IMG/VR virus record: IMGVR_UViG_2690316028_000002
Location: 1 to 13,281 of that record
DNA length: 13,281 nucleotides
DNA from: a virus
Taxonomy: Duplodnaviria > Heunggongvirae > Uroviricota > Caudoviricetes
Reading direction: 5' to 3' (one strand)
The first letter of the stretch is position 1; each line of letters begins with the position of its first letter. Position numbers and translations under genes: made by a program. Positions 1 through 13,281 of the stretch are shown piece after piece. Below the pieces are notes generated by a model that saw only the letters and a list, made by a program, of their open reading frames with translations, searched no databases and had not been told where the DNA came from.

Positions 1-773
1 GCCACATGGGCAATCTGTTCGGCCGTAACGTTGTGGAACTGCTGAGCCATCGCGATCAGGCCTGATGTAGGGTCAGTAGTGAGCTTGCCGTATGCGGCTG
101 CGACTTTTTCCACCGGCACGCCGGAGGCATCAGTAAATCGCGCCACCGCCTGGCTCATTTCATCAAAGCGCGAACTCGCGCCCACCCCCGCGTTGATAAG
201 CTCTCTCAGGGCTTCGCTGGTCTGATTGAACGTCAGCCCCGCTGCCTGGCCGTTTCGTGCCAGCGCCAACATACGATCGGCAGTCAATCCGGCCGTGTTC
301 CCCGACAGTACCAGCGTTTTGTTGAAGTCAGATAGTGTGGATGAGCCCTGGTACCAGGCATAGAACAGCGCACCCGTTGCGGCGGACAGCGCACCGATGC
401 CGACCATCAACGGTGAGATCGTACCCAGTAAGGCCCGGAATGTTGGTATTATCCCGCCAAAGGAGTCCTTAACCTGACCGCCCTGCTGAAGCAGAATAAG
501 CCATGGGTTCTGCCCGCCCGCTAGCTGCGTAGCTATATCGGTAAACTGCGCCGGAAGCATACGCATTGCTGCGTTATACTGGCCTATTGAAATACCCGCC
601 TTGCGCGCGGCGTTCTCCTGGCGGCTAAAGGACTGCTGGATCCGTAGCGCTTCGTCGTTCGCCGCGCTGCCAGTCTGCTTTAATTCTTTTTTGACGTAGT
701 TAAGCTGCTCGTTAAATTTCGTCGAGTTAACGTCAAGGTTAACGACCAGATCACCCACTGCCGTCTGGGCCAT
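1..773 (-). CDS. H: Tail tape measure protein (lambda gpH-like), N-terminal ~257 codons; 3' end lies beyond the window start
   Basis: ATG at 773..771 (plus 'cat'). Hand translation gives MAQTAVGDLVVNLDVNSTKFNEQLNYVKKELKQTGSAANDEALRIQQSFSRQENAARK..., which parallels the lambda gpH N-terminus as I recall it. Reading frame stays open to position 1. Overlaps the T frame stop (751..753) by 23 nt in a different frame. Confidence 0.88.
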   Translation of the reverse strand, partial: MAQTAVGDLVVNLDVNSTKFNEQLNYVKKELKQTGSAANDEALRIQQSFSRQENAARKAGISIGQYNAAMRMLPAQFTDIATQLAGGQNPWLILLQQGGQVKDSFGGIIPTFRALLGTISPLMVGIGALSAATGALFYAWYQGSSTLSDFNKTLVLSGNTAGLTADRMLALARNGQAAGLTFNQTSEALRELINAGVGASSRFDEMSQAVARFTDASGVPVEKVAAAYGKLTTDPTSGLIAMAQQFHNVTAEQIAHV

Positions 774-1116
774 AGCGCACGCCTCCTGAAATACCTGCAG
801 CCTTCGCCATCAGCGTATCGTCATCCGGATCATCGATGTCGATGGCTTCCGGTGCAGAGGAAAGAATGCTGAAACTGTCCGGGGTTAACTCCGGATCGGC
901 AAAAAACAGGGTTGAGATGGTGTAGAGCAAGCCGGAGAAATGTGCGTCCAGCTGCGCATCATGAAAGTAATTGTCCTGGTAGAAGATTTTCCAGTCGCCG
1001 TACTCCGTAGAGGACATGCCAGCAAGCATGGCACGCCAGTCCGGGCGACCGAACTCACGCGCCAGTTTCATGGCAAATTTCAGCTCACTGGCGAGGACTT
1101 TTCCGCAGTAACGGGT
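751..1116 (-). CDS. T: Tail assembly protein T reading frame (lambda gpT-like); probably made only as a G-T fusion by -1 ribosomal frameshifting
   Basis: Track ORF 751..1071 (MKLAREFGRPDWRAMLAGMSSTEYGDW...) matches the lambda gpT start region. The same frame stays open upstream to 1116 and is closed by TGA at 1117..1119, so it overlaps the 3' end of G in the -1 frame. No Shine-Dalgarno serves the internal ATG at 1071. Confidence 0.8.
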   Translation of the reverse strand, partial: TRYCGKVLASELKFAMKLAREFGRPDWRAMLAGMSSTEYGDWKIFYQDNYFHDAQLDAHFSGLLYTISTLFFADPELTPDSFSILSSAPEAIDIDDPDDDTLMAKAAGISGGVRYGPDGSG

Positions 1117-1502
1117 TCAGCGGGATCATTACGTTCTTCACCGGATGAAGTCGGTTCTTCAATGACAGGCGCAATCATCCCGGACAGGAGTTTCACCTTA
1201 TATTCCGCTTCGGCAACCAGTTCGGTCGGCCATGACTGCATGACCTCATCCTGAATCTTTGCCACTTCCGCCGCCGCATTTTCTCCCTGGGAGCCTTTCA
1301 GTTCGTGGCCGTGCCAGAGTGACATCGCCACGAGGAACGCCCCACTTTTTACGGTGAGGGTGATGGCCGCCTGAAAATCGCCAGCTTCAACTGCCTCCAG
1401 CTGCTTCAGGTATTCGAGGTATTCAATACGCTGAAGCGCCGAAAGCTGGAACAATGTGACGCTGCTGCCGTTGCATTCAAGCAGTTCGCTCTTTAGAAAC
1501 AT
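1080..1502 (-). CDS. G: Tail assembly chaperone (lambda gpG-like)
   Basis: 140-aa ORF, the same length as lambda G. ATG at 1502..1500 is preceded by GGAG. Position between V and T matches lambda synteny. Confidence 0.9.
   Translation of the reverse strand: MFLKSELLECNGSSVTLFQLSALQRIEYLEYLKQLEAVEAGDFQAAITLTVKSGAFLVAMSLWHGHELKGSQGENAAAEVAKIQDEVMQSWPTELVAEAEYKVKLLSGMIAPVIEEPTSSGEERNDPAEPVTAEKSSPVS
1098..1104 (-). promoter_or_regulatory. Candidate -1 programmed ribosomal frameshift heptamer (mRNA 5'-GGAAAAG-3') linking G to T
   Basis: The T frame is open only from 1116 downward and G stops at 1080..1082, so the shift must occur within 1083..1116. The only slippery-looking run there is GCG GAA AAG (zero frame) read as GGA AAA in the -1 frame. 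The lambda site is G GGA AAG, so this heptamer is non-canonical. Confidence 0.5.
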
Positions 1503-1538
1503 AATTACTCCGGGGGAACGGGGCTCGCGCCCCGGTTA

Positions 1539-2276
1539 TCAGGAAACAGTGACTTTGCAGATCGCCACAAAGTTACCGTCATTGCTCATAACGATGATTT
1601 CGACGGTGCCTGCCGCCACGCCGGTGACCGTCAGTGTGTTACCGTTAGCCGTAACTGTGGCTTTGGCCCGGTCAGCTGACGATACGCGGAAGGATTTATC
1701 TGACGCACTGGCCGGAAGAACAGATACAACCAGTTGCACAGTTTTACCGACCGCAACAGCTGCAGTGGATTTATCCAGGCTGATCCCCGTGACAGCAATC
1801 GGCGCGGCACCACTGTCTTCTGCCAGTGATGGTTTGCCGTTGTTGGTGATTTTGGCCGTCCGGGTCATGACCTCTTTGGACGTAATGGTTTTACCGAGGC
1901 TGCTCACCCAGCCCTTAAACACATCGACAACACCATTTGGGTATTTGATTTTATATCCCCTCACGGTGCCCTCATCGAACCAGATCACAAGGTCCTGCTG
2001 ACCGGAATCTCCCGGCATCCACGCGAGCGTCAGGTTGGTTTCACCGGCTGATTTCTGCCCCTGCATGGTTGATGTCCAGTCAGCATTCTCATCATCGATG
2101 TAGGTATCATCCTCAGATTCGGCGGTCAGTTCACCGGGCTGCAGGTCTTTAATCTTTGCCAGACGCAGCCAGTCAACATCTGAAAGCGGGTTGGCATAAG
2201 GGTCACCGGTTCCGGTGTAAACCCATAGGGTGGTACCAGCACCTTTTGTTGGTGCCAGCGGGTTTGGTGTGGCCAT
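1539..2276 (-). CDS. V: Major tail tube protein (lambda gpV-like) with a C-terminal Ig-like domain
   Basis: 245-aa ORF. N-terminus ...[26 protein letters not shown]... and the C-terminal T/V/S-rich segment parallel lambda gpV. ATG at 2276..2274 is preceded by GAGGA. Confidence 0.94.
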
Positions 2277-2283
2277 AGGGTCC

Positions 2284-2682
2284 TCACATGTCGTAAGTAA
2301 TGGAATATTTCAGGTCGGCAGAACTCCACAGCGCCATATCGTCATCGCGCTGGTAGTCATAACCCTGCTGAACCATTGTGGTGATAAGGGATTCAAGACC
2401 CGGAACCTCTGCGAGAACCGGATACACCCGCGTTTCCATCCAGTCATCCAGATCAGAATCAGGCACCTGAGCCCCAAGAAAGACTTCGATATGCAGAATG
2501 GCCTGCCAGCTGTCTGCATCCAGTTCTTCCCCGGTGTATTCCGCATCTGTCAGATAGACGGCTACAGCAGGGAAATCTTCCTCTTCGAGCACTGCAGGCC
2601 TGCCGTCAAAATAAATGGCGTCAGTACCAATCGCGCTTTCAAGCGCGTCAATAATTACCTTGCGGATATCGCTGTGTTTCAT
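2284..2682 (-). CDS. U: Tail terminator protein (lambda gpU-like)
   Basis: 132-aa ORF starting [15 protein letters not shown]... with ...FDGRPAV...[10 protein letters not shown]...EYTGEELD..., matching lambda gpU. ATGA start/stop overlap with Z. Confidence 0.94.
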
Positions 2683-3233
2683 CGTGTCAGAATGAGCCTG
2701 AGTTGGTTGGTAAGGGATGCCCGGAGCTCTTTGGGCATATCCGACTCCATAAGCTTCGGCAGTTCTTCTTTAAATGCCGTAGTTAACGGAGCTGCCAGCG
2801 GGATGCTGACTACTTCAATGGGATAACGGGGTTTTGACGTTCGCCTCATGACGTGCCAGCGGCCATTTTTAAGCTGCTGGATGAAACCACCCGGAAAACG
2901 GAACGGCCCTATGCGCAGAACGCTGTTGGCCCCTTTCTTATCCCTTTTTCTGCGGGAAAGGCGCACGCTTGCAGTGCCGAGTTTTATGGCCGGTAAATTT
3001 CCCCGGTTCACCCGGATAAGCGCACGGGGCTTATTGACCGTCGCACGCTTCACTCTGGCGCGTTGCTTTACCAGCTTTCTCGGTACGCGGGTGTCTTTTG
3101 ATACGACCGCAACGCTACGGCTGACAGCACGGTTTGCCACGCGGTTAACGGCCTGCGCCGACGCACGCGGGACAGCCGTTTTGCTGATGCTGTTAAGGTT
3201 CTCTATGGCCTGCTCAAGGCCTTTTATCGACAT
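2679..3233 (-). CDS. Z: Tail completion protein (lambda gpZ-like)
   Basis: 184-aa basic protein at the Z position between FII and U. ATG at 3233..3231 is preceded by GGAG. Confidence 0.88.
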   Translation of the reverse strand: MSIKGLEQAIENLNSISKTAVPRASAQAVNRVANRAVSRSVAVVSKDTRVPRKLVKQRARVKRATVNKPRALIRVNRGNLPAIKLGTASVRLSRRKRDKKGANSVLRIGPFRFPGGFIQQLKNGRWHVMRRTSKPRYPIEVVSIPLAAPLTTAFKEELPKLMESDMPKELRASLTNQLRLILTR

Positions 3234-3242
3234 AGGCGCTCC

Positions 3243-3596
3243 TTAACGGCGACGCGAGGAAGGTGGAGCAGAGCCGTTACCCAGCCAGATATGACAGGAA
3301 CCACAGTCATCCGGATCGATACGATCAACCCAGAATGACCGGCCGTTAATCGTCAGGGTGTCCATACGCTGCAGCTGGCTGACAGTGGAGGTTTCAACAA
3401 ACAGTGTCGGGCTGGTACCTTCAACACGGATCCCCGCTCCCGCATAACCAATGTTTTCTGGATCATCAAAGACACCGACCAGCGTGATGCCAGACAATGC
3501 GCCTGACATCACCTTTGCCTCTGTGCCCATCACACTGCGGATAGTGCCATCAGCTCGCGACATGGCCTCATCAAAGAGATTATCGAAATCAGCCAT
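3243..3596 (-). CDS. FII: Head-tail joining protein (lambda gpFII-like)
   Basis: 117-aa ORF starting MADFDNLFDEA... and ending ...RRR, the same length and termini as lambda gpFII. Confidence 0.93.
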   Translation of the reverse strand: MADFDNLFDEAMSRADGTIRSVMGTEAKVMSGALSGITLVGVFDDPENIGYAGAGIRVEGTSPTLFVETSTVSQLQRMDTLTINGRSFWVDRIDPDDCGSCHIWLGNGSAPPSSRRR

Positions 3597-3606
3597 GCGG
3601 CCCCCT

Positions 3607-4050
3607 TCAGACTTCGCGAGCCAGCCCCTTTGCGATCAGCTCATCGGCATCCTGTTCGGATACGCGGATAATCACTCCGGGCTCAACGATGGATACCGGT
3701 TCGTTACGCGTGGCATGCAGCGCGTCAACATGCAGGGTAGCCAGCGTTTCTACTGATACCCGGTCATCCGTTGTGACCGCTTCGTTTTTTACTTTTTCCG
3801 TGCCATCTACATCGCTGTCGGTGCTGTCGGTGCTGTCGGTGCTGTCGGTGCTGTCGGTGCTGTCGGTGCTGTCGGGAGCATTCTTCTCTCCGTTTTCACC
3901 GTCAATCGAACTGGCATCACCATCCAGCTCCTCTTCCAGCTCAGCAATACGCATCGTAAGTTCCTGAACCGTGCCGCTGGTGCTGACCTCGCGGTTAAGC
4001 TGGGTCCCAAGTTCATTCAGGCGGGCGACCAGCTTTTCTTTTTCTGTCAT
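3607..4050 (-). CDS. FI: DNA-packaging / head assembly accessory protein (lambda gpFI-like) with an internal (STD)n linker repeat
   Basis: Track ORF 3607..4086 begins at a GTG with no Shine-Dalgarno, inside a hairpin. The in-frame ATG at 4050..4048 is preceded by GGAG and gives MTEKEKLVARLNELGTQLNREV..., which parallels the lambda gpFI N-terminus. That start gives 147 aa. Confidence 0.82.
   Translation of the reverse strand: MTEKEKLVARLNELGTQLNREVSTSGTVQELTMRIAELEEELDGDASSIDGENGEKNAPDSTDSTDSTDSTDSTDSTDSDVDGTEKVKNEAVTTDDRVSVETLATLHVDALHATRNEPVSIVEPGVIIRVSEQDADELIAKGLAREV
3804..3866. repeat. Perfect 9-bp tandem repeat (plus-strand unit gctgtcggt, 6 copies plus a 7th imperfect copy) inside the FI coding sequence
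   Basis: Read directly from the sequence at 3804..3866. On the coding strand it encodes (Ser-Thr-Asp)6 followed by Ser-Asp. Confidence 0.9.
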
Positions 4051-4068
4051 GGGAAATACTCCAGAAAG

Positions 4069-4086
4069 GTGGCCCGACAGGGCCAC
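4069..4086 (-). other. Stem-loop between the E stop and the FI ribosome-binding site
   Basis: Perfect 7-bp GC-rich inverted repeat gtggccc / gggccac with a 4-nt loop, 9 nt downstream of the E stop codon on the mRNA strand. Confidence 0.35.
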
Positions 4087-4095
4087 TGGGGGAAG

Positions 4096-5121
4096 TTATG
4101 CCAGTTTGACGGAGACGAATGCGTCAGGGTCTGGCAGCAGCATCAGCGGAGCTGACTGAATCATGGTGAATTCGCGCGCCGGATCCCCCGACTGCACCCA
4201 GTTTTTCGGGTAGCGTGTCGAGGCATTGATACCTTCGCGCTGGGCATCAGCATCAAGAATGCAGCCATAGGTACGCAGGCCACGAGCCTGGGTATTCCCC
4301 AGCACCATTGTCAGGTCCGGCAGATAATTCTTTTTGACGTCGTTTTCGACGTACTGGCCGGAGTACACCACGATGGCCACATCGCCAAACATCCCCTTGT
4401 ATGAAACAGCCATACCCAGGTCTTTCACGGCAGTTTCCAGCTCAGAGTTAGAACCACGACGCGTATCCAGCTTCTTCTCAACAGCCTTGAAGGAACGGAA
4501 CAGCGCCCAGCCTTTCGGATCGAACACAATGATGTTGACCACACCGCTGGCGTTGAGCGCGTAGGCTTCAATGTCATCGGTCGGGTCATACGTTTCTTTG
4601 TCGCGGGTTGACCATGCAGCCGCACCGGCCTGGACAATGTTGTTACCAGCGCTGCGGCCCATATCGACTTCAACAGGCTCGAACGCTTCCCCGGTCATGG
4701 TGTATTTACCGCTGAGCACCGCCGAAACAGCCTGTTTCTCTTCGACCTGAGCAATCGCCAGCTCTTCATCCTTCATGTTCTGAAGGATAATGCGGCGACG
4801 GCGATAGACCGGGTCAGCGAGATTCTGCGGATCCTCATCCGGCAGGCGGCGGAGAGTCATCAGTGGGTTAACTTCGTGTTTCGGCTTCACATAACCCGGC
4901 GTGAATTCAGACGTGCTGCCGCCACGGGAGCGGATCACTTTGCCGGAGACAATCGGCGAGACGTAAAGCGCCATATTGACCAGGCCAGGAATTTGCGACA
5001 GGTAAACCTTCTCTGTACTGAAGGGATAGGTTTCGCGGAAAAAGATACGCAGGAAAAGCGGATCGAATTTGAATTTCTTCTCATTGACCGCCAGCAGTTG
5101 GGCAGTGGTGTAAACGGACAT
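4096..5121 (-). CDS. E: Major capsid protein (lambda gpE-like)
   Basis: 341-aa ORF, the same length as lambda gpE and near-identical along most of its length (MS.YTTAQLLA.NE.KFKFDPLFLR...FTMIQSAPLML). Confidence 0.97.
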   Translation of the reverse strand: MSVYTTAQLLAVNEKKFKFDPLFLRIFFRETYPFSTEKVYLSQIPGLVNMALYVSPIVSGKVIRSRGGSTSEFTPGYVKPKHEVNPLMTLRRLPDEDPQNLADPVYRRRRIILQNMKDEELAIAQVEEKQAVSAVLSGKYTMTGEAFEPVEVDMGRSAGNNIVQAGAAAWSTRDKETYDPTDDIEAYALNASGVVNIIVFDPKGWALFRSFKAVEKKLDTRRGSNSELETAVKDLGMAVSYKGMFGDVAIVVYSGQYVENDVKKNYLPDLTMVLGNTQARGLRTYGCILDADAQREGINASTRYPKNWVQSGDPAREFTMIQSAPLMLLPDPDAFVSVKLA

Positions 5122-5137
5122 AGATTTTTCCCGTAAA

Positions 5138-5159
5138 AAAAGCCGCGCAAGCGGCTTTT
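5138..5159 (-). terminator. Intrinsic-terminator-like hairpin in the D-E intergenic region
   Basis: Minus-strand RNA reads aaaagccgc-uugc-gcggc followed by a run of seven U. GC stem of 5 bp, extendable with A:U pairs. Lies between the D stop (5189) and the E start (5121). Confidence 0.4.
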
Positions 5160-5188
5160 ATGAATGATGATGGTTGTAGAAATGCGGA

Positions 5189-5521
5189 TTAAACGATGCT
5201 GATTGCAGTACCGGCGAACGCGTTACGTTTAATGTTGTCGTCGGTGACGGCAGATGGCCAGAGGACATCTTCAATACGGAAAGAGCCAGATTTGTAATAT
5301 GCCAGTTCCGCGCTGTTCTGGTCTGCGGTTACAGCCAGGATGCCCATTGCCGCGCCAGCATGAGCACCATCCCAGACGGTCAGCTTGCCAGAAGTGGCAT
5401 CCAGCATGAGCGGCGTCATGGCTGGAGTGGAAGCCGTCAGTTCGCCAGGACCATACGCAGTGTGCGCCGGGTCGCTGTTACCGAGCGGCTGGTTATGTGT
5501 GAAAACTTCAGTAATTGCCAT
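5189..5521 (-). CDS. D: Head decoration protein (lambda gpD-like)
   Basis: 110-aa ORF, the same length as lambda gpD; ...GNSDPAHTA...PAMTPLMLD...[10 protein letters not shown] matches. ATG is preceded by GAGG. Confidence 0.95.
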
Positions 5522-5530
5522 GATAGCCTC

Positions 5531-6136
5531 TTAAACGGGGGTGTTTAACAAATCGTCAGCGGCATCAGAAGATGCGCTACCTGCTGGGAGTGCACCGGGT
5601 GCTGTTTCCATCAAACGATCCAGCGCCGTATCGGTACGCGCCTGGGCACTTTGCGGTGCAGCAGCCAGAATGCGCTGTGCGCTCTCTACCGTCATACCCG
5701 GCGTTTCGGCCAGTGCTCGCGCCTGTGACTCACGCCCTTTAGCCTCATCGCAGTTCAGGATGCCCATGATGCGGCTATTCTCTGCAGCTACTGCTGCAGT
5801 AACCTGCGCACTGACATCTACAGGGGCCGCTACGGAAGCAATGGTCGTGTCAACGGTAGTGACCTGTTCAGCTGAGGCAGTTGTCTGAGTTGCTGCCTGG
5901 TCAACTGGCTTAGTGGTCACAGCTGAAGCAGAAGGTGATGGCATAGTTCCTCCAAGGGTTGTTTTTTTGCGTCTGTCGAGTGCTTCGCGCATCACGCCGA
6001 GCGCATCGGTATTGTTAACAAGTTCATCCGCCAGTCCGTTATCCAAAGACTCCTGGCCGGAGAATACTGCCGCTTCGGTGTCCAGCACGTCCTGAACAGA
6101 CATGCCGGTATAAGCGGAAACCTTTTCGGCAAACAT
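5531..6136 (-). CDS. Nu3: Scaffolding protein Nu3, in-frame nested start within the 3' part of C (putative)
   Basis: In lambda, Nu3 is translated from an internal in-frame start in C. Here an in-frame ATG at 6136..6134 (context ...ATRQ-M-FAEKVSAYTG...) gives a 201-codon product, the same length as lambda Nu3. No strong Shine-Dalgarno was seen; the alternative ATG is 11 codons downstream. Confidence 0.55.
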   Translation of the reverse strand: MFAEKVSAYTGMSVQDVLDTEAAVFSGQESLDNGLADELVNNTDALGVMREALDRRKKTTLGGTMPSPSASAVTTKPVDQAATQTTASAEQVTTVDTTIASVAAPVDVSAQVTAAVAAENSRIMGILNCDEAKGRESQARALAETPGMTVESAQRILAAAPQSAQARTDTALDRLMETAPGALPAGSASSDAADDLLNTPV

Positions 6137-6874
6137 CTGACGAGTGGCATCGATACGCGTCTGGAAATCAGCACGCACATCTTTCGGAAGCTTTTCGTAA
6201 GGGTTGCCGTCGACCTTGCGATCGCCGCTGTAAATCAGCGTGACCTCAACGCCGTTAGTTTTGAGCGCAGCGCCATAGTTGCTGTGCGCCATCATGACCC
6301 CAATGGAGCCGGTTCTGGCCGTTTGTGTGACCAGCCGTCGCGATGCCGAACTGGCTATAAGCTGCCCTGCACTGCAGTTCATGTCATTGGCCAGCGCCCA
6401 GATGGGTTTGATATCGCGCATACGGGCTATAATGTCGGCGCAGTCAAACGCCCCGGACACCATTCCACCCGGCGTATCCATATCCAGAAGAATGCCGTCA
6501 ACGCCGGGGTCACTGATTGCCTGCTGCAGGCGAGCAATGATCCCGTTGTAACCCGTCATGCCGGAATAAGGCTGAAGCGCACGGGTTTTACTGACCAGCG
6601 TGCCGGAAACCGGCAAGACCGCGATACCATTTGCCACCTGATAGCTGCGTGATGGACGGGGATCCATGTCATCATCCTCACCAAACAGCGCCAGCGGTTC
6701 GGCTATTTGTCCGGCATCAAGCGTGATGCCAGAGACGGTATCTGTCAGCCGGGTGATGCCCAACTGGCCAGCCAGCGCGCAAAAGAAAACCCGCGCATAG
6801 GCGGGTTCAAGCATCAGCGGCTCATTAAAGGCCATACTGGCAATATGCGGAAGATTACGCAGCTCGTGCGCCAT
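5531..6874 (-). CDS. C: Head maturation protease / scaffold protein (lambda gpC-like)
   Basis: 447-aa ORF starting [40 protein letters not shown]..., matching lambda gpC. Strong GAGGAGGA Shine-Dalgarno before the ATG at 6874. 20-nt overlap with the B 3' end. Confidence 0.94.
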   Translation of the reverse strand: MAHELRNLPHIASMAFNEPLMLEPAYARVFFCALAGQLGITRLTDTVSGITLDAGQIAEPLALFGEDDDMDPRPSRSYQVANGIAVLPVSGTLVSKTRALQPYSGMTGYNGIIARLQQAISDPGVDGILLDMDTPGGMVSGAFDCADIIARMRDIKPIWALANDMNCSAGQLIASSASRRLVTQTARTGSIGVMMAHSNYGAALKTNGVEVTLIYSGDRKVDGNPYEKLPKDVRADFQTRIDATRQMFAEKVSAYTGMSVQDVLDTEAAVFSGQESLDNGLADELVNNTDALGVMREALDRRKKTTLGGTMPSPSASAVTTKPVDQAATQTTASAEQVTTVDTTIASVAAPVDVSAQVTAAVAAENSRIMGILNCDEAKGRESQARALAETPGMTVESAQRILAAAPQSAQARTDTALDRLMETAPGALPAGSASSDAADDLLNTPV

Positions 6875-8447
6875 CTTGCTCCTCCTCGTTTGATTTTTTC
6901 ACTCCGGCCTCAAAAGCTGCAGCGGCCCATGCCGGTGGTTTCAGACCCGCAGCACGACGCTCCATGGTTTCCCGGACCTGCTGGGCAAAAATCTCCTGAT
7001 AATCATCACCGCGTTTGGCGCACTCTTTTTCATACGTGCTGAGACCTGCCTCAATGAGCATGACGGCCTCCTGTACCTCTTTCAGCCCGTCAATTGCCAT
7101 TCGACCAGAGCCAATCCAGTTGGCATTCCCCCAGGCTGTTCTCGCCTCCTGGAAACTGAACCGGGCTTTCGAAGGAAGCGTGACCACGCGGCGGACAATC
7201 GCCTCTTCAAGCCAGCAAAGAAACATCTGACAGGCCTGTCGGGATGCCACAAACTTGCGACGCCCCATAAAGTACGCCCAGGACTCGTTAGCACTTGCGC
7301 GTGCGGTCGAGTAGCTCATCTGCGAATAGTTTCGCGAAAGCTGCTCATACGACACACCAAGCCCAGCGGCAATATAACGCAGCAGGGACTGTTCAAAAGT
7401 CGAGTAGCCGTTATCGGTATCCTGCGCCGACTGAAGGTTGAGAGAATCACCCGGCAACAGGTGTGGAACCCTTGCCCCACCCAGGCGAACAGGCGCAGCT
7501 GAGTAATAGGACGCCATTTCACCGAGCCAGCCCGTAAGTTTGCTCTGCTGCTCTTTATTATCCGCGCCGAGAATAAAGTCCATCGCCGATTGGGTATCCA
7601 GTTCACTCTCGATGGTAGCGGCATACATAGCCTTCACTATCGCGCTCTGGAGCTGGGTATTTTGCAGGGTATCGAGCATTTTCATCTGCTCCATCACGCT
7701 GTAAAACGCATTGGCCCCACGGGTCTGTCCATCCTCCATCGGTTCGAATACATGGATAAATGAAGGTCGACCGCCGGGTAGTTCGCGAGGAATGTAGGTC
7801 CAGTTCTGCGCCATCCAGCCGGGATAACCATCGTCGCTGACGTAATATCCCAGCGCAGCACCGCTATCATTTATTTTCACACCGGCGCGACAGTTCCGGG
7901 TATCACCGATATTATTCGGATTGCTGACGCGCTTCGGACTGACCATTTTGAACTGAGTACGGAAAAGACGCGTTGAATCGCTGTCCCAGGTCGCCTGCGT
8001 GCATAATTCACCGTTAAACGCGTGCATGGCCACACCTTCTCGGATCATCATCGTAAACGTTCGCTTACGCTCGGCATCAATCCCGCAAAAGTCGTCCTCG
8101 GCATACTCATTCCATGCAGCTTCCACATCCCGCGAGAATGCCCGTGAATCCTCCTCATTTATTCCCAGATAACGCCAGCTTGGTCGATAACTGAGTCTGA
8201 AAAATGACCCGACGATGTGGTCCTGGTGGAGCTGCACGGCGTTTGCCGCGTAGCCATTATTTCGCACCAGATCGTCAGCGCGGGCATTTCCGCGAGAATA
8301 GTTGGGTAGGAGTGCGGCATCTGCACTTTCACTCGGCGGATTCCAGCCTCGCAGCTGCCCACCAAACCCGCCTCCACCGCCATGATATCCTGCGTATTCC
8401 CGAAGGGATGTTTTCCCGTCAGGTCCCACCAAAGATGGTATTTTCAT
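6855..8447 (-). CDS. B: Portal protein (lambda gpB-like)
   Basis: 530-aa ORF containing ...[32 protein letters not shown]..., very similar to lambda gpB. ATGA overlap with the W stop. Confidence 0.97.
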
Positions 8448-8650
8448 ACGTAAAACCCTGCTGGCCCCCGGCGTCGTGATGTGGTGCCAACCTGAGATTC
8501 AAGGTCAGCAATATATTTTTTGAGATCGCTGACTGAAGTGGCTGTAAATTCCACTCTTCGACCGTCTTTCTGTACCGTCGCCACGCGCTTTCCCATCATC
8601 AGGTCATGTAACGCAGCGCGCGCGGCATCCAGTTCAGTCTGTGTTGCCAT
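8444..8650 (-). CDS. W: Head-tail joining / head completion protein (lambda gpW-like)
   Basis: 68-aa ORF, the same length as lambda gpW; ...[41 protein letters not shown]...[10 protein letters not shown] matches. Start overlaps the A stop. Confidence 0.94.
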
Positions 8651-10572
8651 TATTCATCTCCAGATAATGCCCGCGCGTAATCCGCCAGGGTCTTGTTATT
8701 GTTACGGCTGCCTTCTTCCTCCAGCAGGCTGGCCAGAAGTGAATCAAGATTTAGCTGCCAGCGGGATATGCTTATACGCAGCGCCGCCAGTGCATAAACA
8801 AAGCAATCGAGCGCCTCATTTCGTCGTTTTTTGCTGTCCCAGACGATCTTTTTCTTTCCGTCTACCCATTTTTCCACCTGCTCTTCAGCTGTTAGTTGTT
8901 GGGCCTCTGTTAGATCGTAGATTTCTGGGTTATTCGGGAAATGAACCGCTCCCGCCAGCGGCTCGTCTCTTTGCGCCACCAGCGTGAAACGGTTATAAAT
9001 CTGCTCTTTTGCGGTGTCTGTTCCTACCTCTGTGAGGTAAACACCATTCTTGTTACGCTTGCGTGGCATGTTCGCCACTGGCTTTCCATAAACCGACGCC
9101 CCCTTTATAGGGATCACACGAAACAGACCGTGTTTTTTTGAGCGGTTGTAGACGATGGTGGGATCAATGCCGCCAATATCCCAGCAAGTGCGGGATATAA
9201 CCATTTCGAGACCGTTCTGGCGCTTATACGTCCTGTTGATCGCTTCATCAACTCGAGCGAGAGTCGACTCATCATCATGACGACCCATAATGATAATTTT
9301 GTCGATAAGCCAGCTTTCCTCTCCCGGCCCCCATCCCCAAACACGCATTTCGTAACGGTCAAGCTGGGAGTCAATACCCGCTGTCAGATATGCCACTCGC
9401 TCCGGCACAGACGCTTCAAAGTGCTCTTTTCGTTCCGCTAAAACTTCAGCATCGGGTCGTTCACCTATTTTCGGTTCCCACGTTTCGCCCAGGGTCGTGT
9501 TAACGAAAGTTTTTCGCTTACCCGTATCACCTTTTGTTTTTATCCAGTCCTTGACGATCTGCACCCAGGTTGTGAACGGGCTATATGCGGTCCAGATGTG
9601 GAATGTAACGCTGTCAGGAGGTTCAATTTCGGTACCGGATGAAGAAAACCAGTTAAGGCCGTCTCGTGTCCAGATACCTGTTTCATCACAAATATACCTG
9701 GCCTCCAGAAATTCCAGCTCCTGTTGTTTAATCACACAGGCATTGTGTTCACAGAGGTAGTAAACGCTGGCAGGTTCTCCCGGAGACCATTTGAAGCCAA
9801 ATGGTGTCTCTTTATCACCGAATTTCAGATACTGCTCTTCCCCACAGTGTGGGCATGGAACATGGAACCGAAGAAAATGTTCAGACTCCTTAGCAGCTCT
9901 TTCTATCTGGCACGTACCTTTGACTTTCGGTGTAGATCCGCGAATGGATTTCGGCCATACAGAACCCTCAATACGCTTATCACCCAGAAAGGTGGGAGAA
10001 CCTTCTTTCTCGATGTCATCATCGAAAGCGGCGAGCTCGTCGTAGCCAGCCACATCAACTGATTTTTCACGGTAGTTTTTTGCAGCCTTACCGCCCAGGC
10101 ACCAGAAACCACGACCATTCGAGAAACGCTTCATGCTCAGCGTATTGTCCCGGTGTTTTTTACCGTACCAGGGAGCAAGCGCCAGCAACGTCGGAATATC
10201 ACGAATGGTCGGTTCTACATGAGACTTCATGAAGTTTTCAGCATCACCGTCGGTTGGTAACCATATTAGGGAGTTACGCTGTTTATGTTGGATGAAATAT
10301 GCGTAAACGCCGAGCAACATTTTTGAGTAGCCGACACGAGCCGATTTAACGACATTCACCTCGCGAATATAGTCATTACCCATCGCATTCATAATTGCAC
10401 GCTGAAATGGCAGTGTTTCCCAGCGCCCTTCCTGGTAGGCAGACTCTTTCGGGAGATAATAATTCTCATCTGCCCATTCAACTGCTGTTTGCGGTTGCGG
10501 CCGGTACAGCGAACGTAACCCCGCCCGCGCAGAGTGCTGCAGCCCCTTAACCTGACTGTTCGATATATTCAC
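8650..10572 (-). CDS. A: Terminase large subunit (lambda gpA-like; ATPase/translocase plus cos endonuclease)
   Basis: 640-aa ORF starting MNISNSQV... with high similarity to lambda gpA throughout. The start codon is GTG at 10572..10570, immediately after an in-frame TGA, so no ATG is available. 26-nt overlap with the Nu1 3' end. Confidence 0.97.
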
Positions 10573-11092
10573 TCAGCAACCCCGGTATCATTTCATCCAG
10601 CGCAGCTGCCTTGTTCATGGCCTTAATGATGTCCTTCTTGAGGAAATCAATATGTCGGTTCTCCAGCTCCGGGAAGCGCCGCTGAACCGACAGAGGTATT
10701 CCATCGAGAATGCTGGCGATTTCTCCGGCTACCCGCGACAGCACGAACGTGCAGAATGCGGTCTCCACCACTTCAGCGGACTCTTTTGCATTTTTTAATT
10801 CCTGAGCGTCAGCCTGAGCTCGCGTAAGTCGGTGTCGCTCATATTCAATCGTGCCAGGTTGAAGATCGGACTCAGAAGCGATACGGAGATCTTCAACTTC
10901 CTTCCGCAACTTTTCATTTTCTATAGCTGCATCGCGCGCACTGTACCATTCGATTGCAGCAGCAGATTCAAAGAGAACCTCATTACCTTTGCCACCACCG
11001 CGGACAACCGGCATACCTTGCTCCTGCCAGTTCTGAATCGTTCGGACGCTTACCCCGAAAATTTCGGATAAGCGTTTTTTGTTAACCTCCAT
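10547..11092 (-). CDS. Nu1: Terminase small subunit (lambda gpNu1-like; cosB-binding winged-helix N-terminus)
   Basis: 181-aa ORF, the same length as lambda Nu1; MEVNKK...IRTIQNWQEQGMPV.RGGGKGNEV... matches closely. ATG at 11092..11090 is preceded by AGGAG. Confidence 0.96.
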   Translation of the reverse strand: MEVNKKRLSEIFGVSVRTIQNWQEQGMPVVRGGGKGNEVLFESAAAIEWYSARDAAIENEKLRKEVEDLRIASESDLQPGTIEYERHRLTRAQADAQELKNAKESAEVVETAFCTFVLSRVAGEIASILDGIPLSVQRRFPELENRHIDFLKKDIIKAMNKAAALDEMIPGLLSEYIEQSG

Positions 11093-11099
11093 GGCTTAC

Positions 11100-11260
11100 T
11101 CCTGGCAAAAAACAGAGAAAGGAAACAATCAACGGTAAACTTCCGTTTTCCTTGCTCAGCATTTCCTTTCTGGAGAGAGGACGTTTTTAACAAAAACAAT
11201 GAGTAAACAAGAAGAAGAACGGAAATGGCATAAACCAGAAAATTTTCATAAATAGCGAGA
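11100..11260 (-). promoter_or_regulatory. cosB-like terminase-binding region with R-element-like motifs
   Basis: GGAAAC/GTTTCC-type motifs lie at about 11110..11127, 11153..11169 and 11211..11228, separated by an AT-rich segment. The layout parallels lambda R1, R2, (IHF site), R3 as recalled. Boundaries are approximate. Confidence 0.6.
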
Positions 11261-11261
11261 A

Positions 11262-11285
11262 TCTGCGCGGACGCCGCCCCGTAAC
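11262..11285 (-). other. cosN-like nicking site; predicted 12-nt cohesive end 5'-GGGCGGCGTCCG-3' at 11279..11268
   Basis: The minus strand reads TTACG-GGGCGGCGTCCG-CGCAGA; the lambda junction as I recall it is TTACG-GGGCGGCGACCT-CGCGGG. Nick positions are assigned only by analogy. Confidence 0.6.
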
Positions 11286-11302
11286 AAGGCGGATCGCCGG
11301 AA

Positions 11303-11309
11303 AGGACCC
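11303..11309 (-). promoter_or_regulatory. cosQ-like element (minus-strand GGGTCCT)
   Basis: The heptamer sits inside a stretch (CCGGAAAGGACCCG) that matches the lambda right end as recalled, at similar spacing from cosN. Confidence 0.55.
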
Positions 11310-11337
11310 GCAAACGATAATAATTATCAATTGCATA

Positions 11338-12066
11338 CTATCGACGGCACTGCTGCCAGATAACACCACCGGGGAAACATTCCATCATGATGGCCGTGCG
11401 GACATAGGAAGCCAGTTCATCCATCGCTTTCTTGTCTGCTGCCATTTGCTTTGTGACATCCAGCGCCGCACATTCAGCAGCGTTTTTCAGCGCGTTTTCG
11501 ATCAACGTTTCAATGTTGGTATCAACACCAGGTTTAACTTTGAACTTATCGGCACTGACGGTTACCTTGTTCTGCGCTGGCTCATCACGCTGGATACCAA
11601 GGCTGATGTTGTAGATATTGGTCACCGGCTGAGGTGTTTCGATTGCCGCTGCGTGGATAGCACCATTTGCGATAGCGGCGTCCTTGATGAATGACACTCC
11701 ATTGCGAATAAGTTCGAAGGAGACGGTGTCACGAATGCGCTGGTCCAGCTCGTCGATTGCCTTTTGTGCAGCAGAGGTATCAATCTCAACGCCAAGCGTC
11801 ATCGAAGCGCAATATTGCTGCTCACCAAAACGCGTATTGACCAGGTGTTCAACGGCAAATTTCTGCCCTTCTGATGTCAGAAAGGTAAAGTGATTTTCTT
11901 TCTGGTATTCAGTTGCTGTGTGTCTGGTTTCAGCAAAACCAAGCTCGCGCAATTCGGCTGTGCCAGATTTGGCTGGCAGATCACCAGACAGCAACGCGCC
12001 ACGGAAAAACAGCGCATACAGAACATCCGTCGCCGCGCCGGACAACGTGATAATTTTATGACCCAT
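11338..12066 (-). CDS. Hypothetical protein, 242 aa, function unknown; cargo gene in late-operon orientation abutting cosQ
   Basis: ATG at 12066..12064 is preceded by AAGGAAA about 8 nt upstream. TAG stop at 11338..11340 lies 29 bp from cosQ. No motif I can recognise (no Walker A, no obvious catalytic signature). Similarity to the lambda right end stops at this gene. Confidence 0.75.
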   Translation of the reverse strand: MGHKIITLSGAATDVLYALFFRGALLSGDLPAKSGTAELRELGFAETRHTATEYQKENHFTFLTSEGQKFAVEHLVNTRFGEQQYCASMTLGVEIDTSAAQKAIDELDQRIRDTVSFELIRNGVSFIKDAAIANGAIHAAAIETPQPVTNIYNISLGIQRDEPAQNKVTVSADKFKVKPGVDTNIETLIENALKNAAECAALDVTKQMAADKKAMDELASYVRTAIMMECFPGGVIWQQCRR

Positions 12067-12085
12067 GATTTATTTCCTTTTAGAC

Positions 12086-12139
12086 GTGAGCCTGTCGCAC
12101 AGCAAAGCCGCCGAAAGTTAACGGTTTGCCCAGGCTCAC
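12086..12139. repeat. Perfect 9-bp inverted repeat (gtgagcctg ... caggctcac) with a 36-bp spacer, in the 5' leader of the 242-aa gene
   Basis: Arms at 12086..12094 and 12131..12139 are exact reverse complements. The spacer contains a GTTAAC palindrome. The repeat lies about 20 nt upstream of the 242-aa gene start codon. Confidence 0.8.
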
Positions 12140-12438
12140 AACTGAAAGACTTTCTACGGTGTGCGCGTGCGATGCGCGTAGAAGACTGATTTATCAACCT
12201 GTCTTTATATCAGGATTCATTACCTGACTATTTGTGGGTAAAGTTCGTAGTGCGCTGATCGTGCAAAATGATTTTAGTTGGGAACAGTTCGCAACTCTGT
12301 CCCATAAAAATCAGCATATTCCCATCTATCCCATATCCAGCGCATTGACCATCGGGATACTGAAGGGAGATTCCATCATCTCTTAGAAAGATCACCATCT
12401 CTTTTGTTTCAATTTGCATATAGCTACCTGGAGGATTT

Positions 12439-13053
12439 ATGAATACAAGGATTTTCATGGACTATTACCATGAGATTGATTTTCCATCTTTATTCGCGAG
12501 AGCAGTGGAAAGCGATGACGATGTGGGTACTACATTGCGCATTCACCTACTTTGTGAGCGCATGGTCGAAGCATGGATATGCGCATGCTGTGACTGCCAA
12601 GATCTCTTTGGAAGAGATAAAAACAAACTTTTAATCGAATGTAATACTAAAATATCCATGGCGGGAAACCTGGGAATCCCCACGGAACTTATGAAATCAC
12701 TTAAAACCATCAACTCAATGCGTAATGACCTTGCACACAATCCATCAATACAAAGCATTGCTGATTCAAGGATCCAGAGCCTGACGGATACTCTGACTGA
12801 ATACTTTAAACAGCATCCAACGGAACCCAGCATGGAAGAATCAAAACTGGGTATTTTTAACGCCGAGAATCAATTAACCGAAGAAGTTTCCTTAGATAGT
12901 GACAGTTCAAAAAACAGACTTAAGTTAATCTTGCTGTTCAGCAAGTTAATGCAGGCGTTAATGCAATTAGTTGCAGCTAATCATAATGGGCGCTGGGATA
13001 ACCAATTTAGCCAATTCGTTTACCATGTGACCATGAACGCAACAAAGAGATAA
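12439..13053 (+). CDS. Putative HEPN-domain protein (R-x4-H motif), 204 aa; AT-rich moron, candidate abortive-infection or exclusion RNase
   Basis: ATG at 12439 with GGAGG 4 nt upstream; TAA stop followed 5 nt later by a perfect hairpin. Orientation is opposite to the late operon and the gene is visibly AT-rich compared with the structural genes. The protein has ...SMRNDLAHN... (R95-x4-H100) and a Cys cluster (C48, C50, C51, C53). HEPN assignment rests on the motif only. Confidence 0.8.
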   Translation: MNTRIFMDYYHEIDFPSLFARAVESDDDVGTTLRIHLLCERMVEAWICACCDCQDLFGRDKNKLLIECNTKISMAGNLGIPTELMKSLKTINSMRNDLAHNPSIQSIADSRIQSLTDTLTEYFKQHPTEPSMEESKLGIFNAENQLTEEVSLDSDSSKNRLKLILLFSKLMQALMQLVAANHNGRWDNQFSQFVYHVTMNATKR

Positions 13054-13058
13054 ATCTA

Positions 13059-13077
13059 AGCCCGTTTTGTACGGGCT
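13059..13077. terminator. Hairpin between convergent genes (agcccgt-tttgt-acgggct), putative bidirectional terminator
   Basis: Perfect 7-bp stem with a 5-nt loop, 5 nt after the stop of the 204-aa gene and about 10 nt after the stop of the small minus-strand ORF. Flanks are moderately T-rich, more so on the minus strand. Confidence 0.5.
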
Positions 13078-13086
13078 GTTGCATTA

Positions 13087-13218
13087 TCACAGGCACTCAG
13101 TGAATGCCTGCTGTAATGCCGCGATCAGCCAATCAACAATTCTGGCTGCGTCACCTGGCGGAATGGTGAATGCCGGAAGTCTGTGCCATTTGGCTTTTGC
13201 CATCTGTTGCTCCGTCAT
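13087..13218 (-). CDS. Small hypothetical ORF (43 aa, or 38 aa from the second ATG), speculative
   Basis: Hand-translated: MTEQQMAKAKWHRLPAFTIPPGDAARIVDWLIAALQQAFTECL. Bounded upstream by an in-frame stop at 13234..13236. Weak Shine-Dalgarno. Convergent with the 204-aa gene and ends at the shared hairpin. Too short for the ORF track. Confidence 0.25.
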   Translation of the reverse strand: MTEQQMAKAKWHRLPAFTIPPGDAARIVDWLIAALQQAFTECL

Positions 13219-13281
13219 TATCCGTTGCAGGGGTTATTTTTGATTTATCCGCTCAGGGGGATATCCATTATCAAGCCCACC

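Follow-up and report, generated by a model that had tools for sequence, protein, structure and literature searches.

One of the closest described systems is lambda gpFI (PF14000; PDB 2LSM), a protein of the same family as the one analysed here, encoded likewise between E and FII and sharing a three-part layout of a helical N-terminal domain, a long acidic flexible linker and a small C-terminal domain. Popovic and colleagues are said to have found in 2012 that the C-terminal domain of lambda gpFI binds gpE, and disorder was reportedly described for the protein in the same work. gpFI is described as linking the capsid to the terminase-DNA complex when packaging begins; it is essential in vivo and dispensable in vitro, and the need for it is bypassed by suppressor mutations in terminase or capsid (PMC13595911). 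Binding to the major capsid protein and stimulation of packaging by terminase into proheads are known for lambda gpFI only (PMC13595911). The gpFI linker also serves to illustrate disordered linkers in a further paper (PMC10968229). The FI homolog considered here is encoded within a stretch of viral DNA of 13,281 nucleotides, which was analysed as a whole and which we call the window. This homolog is unlike lambda gpFI in three respects, in that the lambda linker lacks a repeat, the lambda protein has 132 amino acids (from NC_001416, 7202-7600) against 147, and overall identity between the two is 43%. The excess over lambda gpFI, put at about 15 residues in a sequence-only reading of the window, is thus exact. 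The FI proteins of phi80, N15 (gp9), HK225, mEp237 and Enterobacter phage MStein-2023a belong to the window's own subtype, with 85-95% identity and an array of GACAGCACC units at the same codon, and they differ from it in copy number, with 3, 5, 3, 2 and 8 units, respectively, against the six of the window.

Two other classes of repeat invite comparison. The passages concerned with staphylococcal Ser-Asp (SD) repeat proteins and with Borg tandem repeats describe in-frame variable-number tandem repeats (VNTRs; PMC3324548, PMC9879509) which, like the FI array, are perfect, have a unit that is a multiple of 3 and are rich in Ser, Asp and Thr. On the same accounts, these repeats also resemble the FI array in varying in copy number between strains and in creating or extending disordered spacers (PMC3324548, PMC9879509). 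The FI array differs from the repeats described in those passages in being much shorter (1-10 units) and in belonging to a cytoplasmic phage assembly chaperone, not a surface protein. Slipped-strand contingency genes likely share its mutational mechanism, the misalignment of short perfect repeats, but in those genes units that are not a multiple of 3, or repeats in promoters, switch expression, whereas the FI array changes length only. We know of no link between the FI array and host interaction. Our search of the literature found no paper on the peptide DSTDST or on a repeat in phi80 or N15 FI, and the array is a previously undescribed, fairly ordinary example of a well-known kind, namely the in-frame VNTRs by which disordered linkers are lengthened.

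The FI gene and its tandem array

The window contains, all on the minus strand, the lambda-type head and tail module Nu1-A-W-B-C-D-E-FI-FII-Z-U-V-G-T (with A the terminase, B the portal and C the protease), and FI is flanked by E (major capsid) and FII (head-tail joining) in the manner of a lambda-type head module. The FI reading frame matches PF14000 (Packaging_FI) with 181.7 bits against a cut-off of 27 (E 1e-53), residues 3-144 covering profile positions 1-131 of 131, and homologous genes carry the annotation FI in N15, HK225, phi80 and E. coli. This score and the location between E and FII bear out the identification as an FI homolog that had been made from the letters of the window. The features to which we refer are listed here in window positions.

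3607..4050, minus strand: FI homolog (DNA-packaging chaperone), 147 aa plus stop, with its ATG at 4050 (translation, Pfam)
3919..4050, minus strand: conserved N-terminal domain, residues 1-44, with two predicted helices (invariant columns; pLDDT 92-94)
3760..3924, minus strand: variable acidic linker containing the array, residues 43-97, 55 aa (alignment, AlphaFold, composition)
3610..3759, minus strand: conserved C-terminal domain, residues 98-147 (homology to the solved lambda gpFI C-domain)
3814..3875, minus strand: whole tandem array, 62 nt (Tandem Repeats Finder)
3820..3873, minus strand: six perfect GACAGCACC units, (Asp-Ser-Thr)6, FI residues 60-77
3814-3819, minus strand: partial seventh unit GACAGC, Asp-Ser, residues 78-79
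4069-4086, minus strand: G+C-rich hairpin GTGGCCC-TGTC-GGGCCAC between the E stop (4096) and the FI ATG (4050) (sequence)

Tandem Repeats Finder reports one strong array in the 13.3-kb window, at 3814-3875, with period 9, 6.9 copies, 100% matches, no indels and a score of 124. The unit GACAGCACC has six exact head-to-tail matches at 3820-3873 on the minus strand and none elsewhere in the window, and in dinucleotide-preserving shuffles the mean number of matches was 0.10, with none of 200 reaching six. Three or more identical units placed head to tail characterise a VNTR, and the FI array has six. After the partial unit GACAGC the array is interrupted by GAT, which makes the seventh copy an imperfect one. 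The in-frame translation is ...NAP-(DST)6-DS-DVDG..., in which (DST)6 is the same repeat as (STD)6, and the plus strand of the array reads GCTGTCGGT. The sequence-only reading was therefore right to describe six exact 9-bp copies and an imperfect seventh, in frame within FI; the coordinates that it gave, 3804-3866, lie about 10 nt too far to the left. The coding strand of the array is the minus strand, and that reading made no mention of strand. An antisense open reading frame at 3689-3967 on the plus strand, in which the array would be read as Leu-Ser-Val, was considered and found to be without support, the Pfam match being in the minus-strand frame.

The array lies between two conserved domains. 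In an alignment of 14 sequences including lambda, conservation is found in residues 1-43 and 98-147, and residues 44-97 differ in sequence as well as in length. Residues 93-145 match chain A of 2LSM, in which the C-terminal domain of the lambda protein was solved (E 6.3e-10). AlphaFold, run with a 28-sequence alignment as input, predicts two confident helices at residues 3-18 and 28-44 (pLDDT 92-94), and gives residues 50-123, including the array, no secondary structure and a pLDDT of ~43-46, with ~43-45 over residues 60-80; the score of the C-terminal domain is also poor, so that low pLDDT alone is weak evidence of disorder here. The 55 residues of the linker include 18 Asp/Glu, 4 Lys/Arg, 18 Ser/Thr and 4 hydrophobic residues, and the features by which disordered linkers are recognised in sequence (low conservation, varying length, few hydrophobics and no predicted secondary structure) are all present. 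Because of the 2LSM match, the pattern of conservation, the AlphaFold model and the linker composition, we conclude that the array (residues 60-79) sits mid-way along an acidic, probably disordered inter-domain linker. The earlier proposal that the repeat occupies an acidic linker between domains agrees with the 2LSM match, the alignment and the model. We also considered the N-terminal domain as a DNA-binding motif of the HeH/SAP/Rho_N type, for which there were sub-threshold matches only (SAP_new25, E 0.13).

The hairpin at 4069-4086 lies outside the repeat and is described for context only. It is followed by CTTTCTGG, and a rho-independent terminator is annotated at the equivalent position in HK225 and N15; a simple terminator scan did not flag the hairpin of the window. 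In RefSeq, the start of phi80 FI is an upstream GTG within the hairpin (GVALSGHLSGVFP...), which gives a protein of 150 aa; this start is probably too early.

Copy number and unit turnover

A scan of IMG/VR added 59 further loci to the phages named above. Among 57 non-redundant complete FI genes, 1, 2, 3, 4, 5, 6, 7 and 8 copies are found in 5, 8, 11, 15, 11, 4, 1 and 2 genes, respectively, and arrays cut by contig ends contain at least 7 and at least 10 units. Copy number in N15/phi80/mEp237-type phages and prophages accordingly ranges from 1 to at least 10, with a unimodal distribution whose mode is 3-4. Linker length across the family is 40-80 aa, with a mode of 46, and the linker of the window has 55. 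A protein-based scan of one genome per species yielded no confirmed relative.

The same variation is seen between identical flanks, which is the pattern that a VNTR displays. One FI allele, in which all 387 non-array bases are identical, occurs with 2, 3, 4, 5 and 6 copies, and of the eight alleles that recur, seven vary in copy number, the eighth being N15 counted twice. The 387-base allele is present in 32 of 5,426 complete E. coli genomes, where the gene is 408 (two genomes), 417 (five), 426 (20), 435 (four) or 444 nucleotides long (one). Identities in these 32 genomes are those expected from gap-only differences except in two records (98.8% and 97.4%), which also carry a few substitutions. 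A metagenome contig (L094), aligned to window positions 1-10050, differs there by 3 mismatches and by one gap of 27 nt, equivalent to 3 versus 6 copies, and the 138-aa protein that it encodes (P0001) is the same as window FI minus three units. The exact 147-aa FI protein of the window was not found among 15 billion proteins. Copy number is thus not invariant among homologs and prophages, and the prediction that it would differ between isolates held both across the family (1 to at least 10) and on identical flanks (2-6).

Over laboratory time the picture is one of constancy. Each of the three phi80 phage records has 3 units, phi80-like matches in the E. coli genomes XL10-gold and JCL301 have 3 units each, and a protein of phi80 length (P0134, 138 aa) occurs on at least 1000 contigs. 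In the E. coli 2020S05-013 lineage, 4 units are present in 7/7 assemblies. Short arrays appear to be stable on the laboratory scale, and the tract does not appear to be hypermutable there.

The units themselves are uniform: 243 of 248 are one of three exact 9-mers, namely GACAGCACC (DST, 131 units), GGCAGCACC (GST, 89) and GACAGCGCC (DSA, 23). Most arrays consist of a single unit type, and a few mix GST and DST. The flanks within FI diverge by 10-40% between lineages, and relative to them the units are homogenised at the nucleotide level, as is the case for VNTRs. The combination of perfect units and diverged flanks indicates turnover at the level of DNA and not peptide selection alone, and points to ongoing slippage or unequal exchange at the array. 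We also considered a hairpin-forming repeat and rejected it, the predicted DNA fold being weaker than that of shuffles (z +1.58), and without hairpin potential the most economical mechanism is simple misalignment or unequal exchange. Sequence comparison suggests a mechanism in which identical 9-nt units would misalign during replication (slipped-strand mispairing) and whole units would be gained or lost; unequal exchange between sister or co-resident copies would be an alternative route to the same outcome. Each such event would add Asp-Ser-Thr to the linker or remove it, three residues per copy. Every complete homolog is in frame whatever its copy number, because the 9-nt unit is a multiple of 3, and a change in copy number is therefore a modulation of length and not an on/off switch.

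Mosaic context and the meaning of copy number

The closest matches to the module are the coliphages mEp237 and Phi06_2987, with 97% identity over 83-85% of the window, followed by HK225, N15 and phi80. In a sliding comparison, the window is 100% identical to mEp237 (L071) across C, D and E, from 6040 to ~4000, and 100% identical to phi80 (L070) from 5560 to ~3760, both array flanks included. Downstream of ~3760, identity is ~90% to mEp237 and ~70% to phi80. The flanks of the array are of phi80 type and the rest of the head module is closest to mEp237; as judged by these alignments, FI is at a mosaic junction. At the other end of the module, the matches to mEp237, HK225 and N15 end near 11092-11335, beyond Nu1 and cos, and window positions 11338-13281 are outside the shared part. 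An open reading frame there (11338-12066, minus strand) has a weak Phage_Tail_Tip match only, and two others (12228-12458, minus strand, and 12439-13053, plus strand) have no Pfam match.

By analogy with lambda gpFI, the linker would tether the N-terminal helical hairpin to the C-terminal domain (reportedly the gpE-binding part in lambda), and copy number would set the length of this tether. Selection would then act only so that the tract stays in frame, acidic, rich in Ser/Thr and without structure. Because the linker tolerates a range of 40-80 residues, most length variation is probably neutral or nearly so. Stabilising selection for a given tether length could account equally well for the unimodal distribution of copy number, which leaves room for weak stabilising selection or tuning. 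Taking the evidence together, we think it likely that the tract is an in-frame VNTR in the disordered acidic linker of FI, in which slippage or exchange alters the length of a tether with near-neutral consequences.

A more strongly adaptive reading, which on balance seems unlikely to us, is that copy number acts as a tuning knob, being selected to fit the tether to the capsid, terminase and portal combination of each mosaic phage, with the mutable repeat allowing FI to re-optimise quickly after recombination of head genes. The position of FI at a mosaic junction is consistent with such tuning, as are the unimodal rather than flat distribution of copy number, the similar linker lengths of repeat-free relatives (lambda, L056 and L061) and the observation that the 5- and 6-copy alleles L006 and L007 adjoin a different capsid protein accession than do 4-copy alleles. 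However, a single FI allele tolerates 2-6 copies among prophages that otherwise resemble one another and the linker spans a two-fold range (40-80 aa), and the fact that lambda gpFI is dispensable in vitro and can be bypassed by suppressors also argues against tight geometric constraints (PMC13595911). A related and rather doubtful idea is that the linker repeat is an evolvable length dial, with which recombinant phages, by rapidly gaining or losing DST units, could re-tune the chaperone's two halves or re-pair them; we raise it because FI bridges a capsid-binding C-terminal domain and a terminase-facing N-terminal domain and sits at a mosaic junction. Such a dial could include occasional crossover within the shared array. 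If it exists, copy number should follow the genotype at the capsid and terminase genes and have a measurable effect on packaging efficiency. The array might instead matter mainly as a recombination joint, that is, as a stretch of identity for swapping the N- and C-terminal modules of FI between phages, since the perfect repeat is common to FI alleles that otherwise differ by 10-15%. We consider this improbable. It draws on E. coli MSB1_9D, which has two FI prophages (NZ_LR890349.1, 1730824-1731249 and 2811860-2812285) with 4 units each. Prophage 1 (L005, the former) is window-like upstream of the array (474/477) and again 120-500 nt downstream of it (379/380), and its array and the next 120 nt are instead of mEp237 type (116/120), like the second prophage of the same genome. 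This patch looks like a conversion tract bounded by the array, but it is one example. In a four-gamete scan of 29 distinct FI alleles, moreover, incompatible site pairs that span the array are not in excess (0.15 against a background of 0.08-0.54), and the window itself is of phi80 type on either side of the array, its own mosaic junction lying ~60-100 nt downstream.

Mis-assembly of the repeat, whether as the source of the six copies of the window or of the differences among homologs, is very improbable. Short-read assemblies do break at the array, with seven IMG/VR contigs and several database proteins ending inside it, and the absence of the exact window protein from the 15-billion-protein collection would also fit an assembly error. 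Against this, the array, at 62 nt, fits within typical reads and within the k=141 used for contig L094, copy number differs among the individually sequenced cultured phages N15, phi80, HK225 and mEp237, and complete genomes in RefSeq vary too, always by exact multiples of 9. Least credible of all is a phase-variable contingency locus, in which slippage would switch FI expression on and off. The presence of a perfect short tandem repeat in a coding region is the sole point in its favour, and the 9-nt unit never shifts the frame, all complete homologs are in frame and neither the start codon nor any promoter is near the array. Neither a frame shift nor a change in promoter spacing, one of which such a locus requires, is found at the FI array.

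The array provides a natural allelic series in which near-identical backgrounds carry from 1 to at least 10 units and the linkers range over 40-80 residues. The series could be cloned directly into phi80, N15 or lambda hybrids, where it would bear on the tether model of gpFI, in which the protein flexibly joins prohead and terminase. The array also offers a small VNTR marker that separates otherwise identical N15/phi80/mEp237-type prophages of E. coli and Enterobacter, and it is a recurrent break point in short-read assemblies. The IMG/VR contigs that end in or at the array are L059, L063-L068, L079 and L082, the partial proteins that do so are P0123, P0124, P0127, P0128, P0138, P0144 and P0146, and the isolate genome IMG 2703718696 has two contigs that stop within the array, one of them with at least 10 units. 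Because contigs end in the array, long alleles are under-sampled.

Related repeats in other FI genes and elsewhere

A sister group of FI proteins (P0006-P0051 and others; L010, L011) has a longer degenerate repeat, DSTDIDTDTNIDT..., in place of the simple DST array. The proteins come from Enterobacter, Klebsiella and some E. coli, and their repeat also varies in length, giving proteins of 137-172 aa. The idea that the unit is a module specific to FI was rejected: the 27-mer (GACAGCACC)3 is also found in phage genes other than FI, and at least 120 GTDB genomes (L095-L214), mostly of Actinomycetota, contain it, with up to 13 units among the matches listed. An unrelated small phage open reading frame (L072, 2987-3289; IMGVR_UViG_3300011586_000012) contains three GACAGCACC units, likewise read as DST, which link a short N-terminal segment to a region whose Rho_N/HeH match is below threshold (E 0.0026). 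From its sequence, this array is apparently an independent origin of the same linker repeat.
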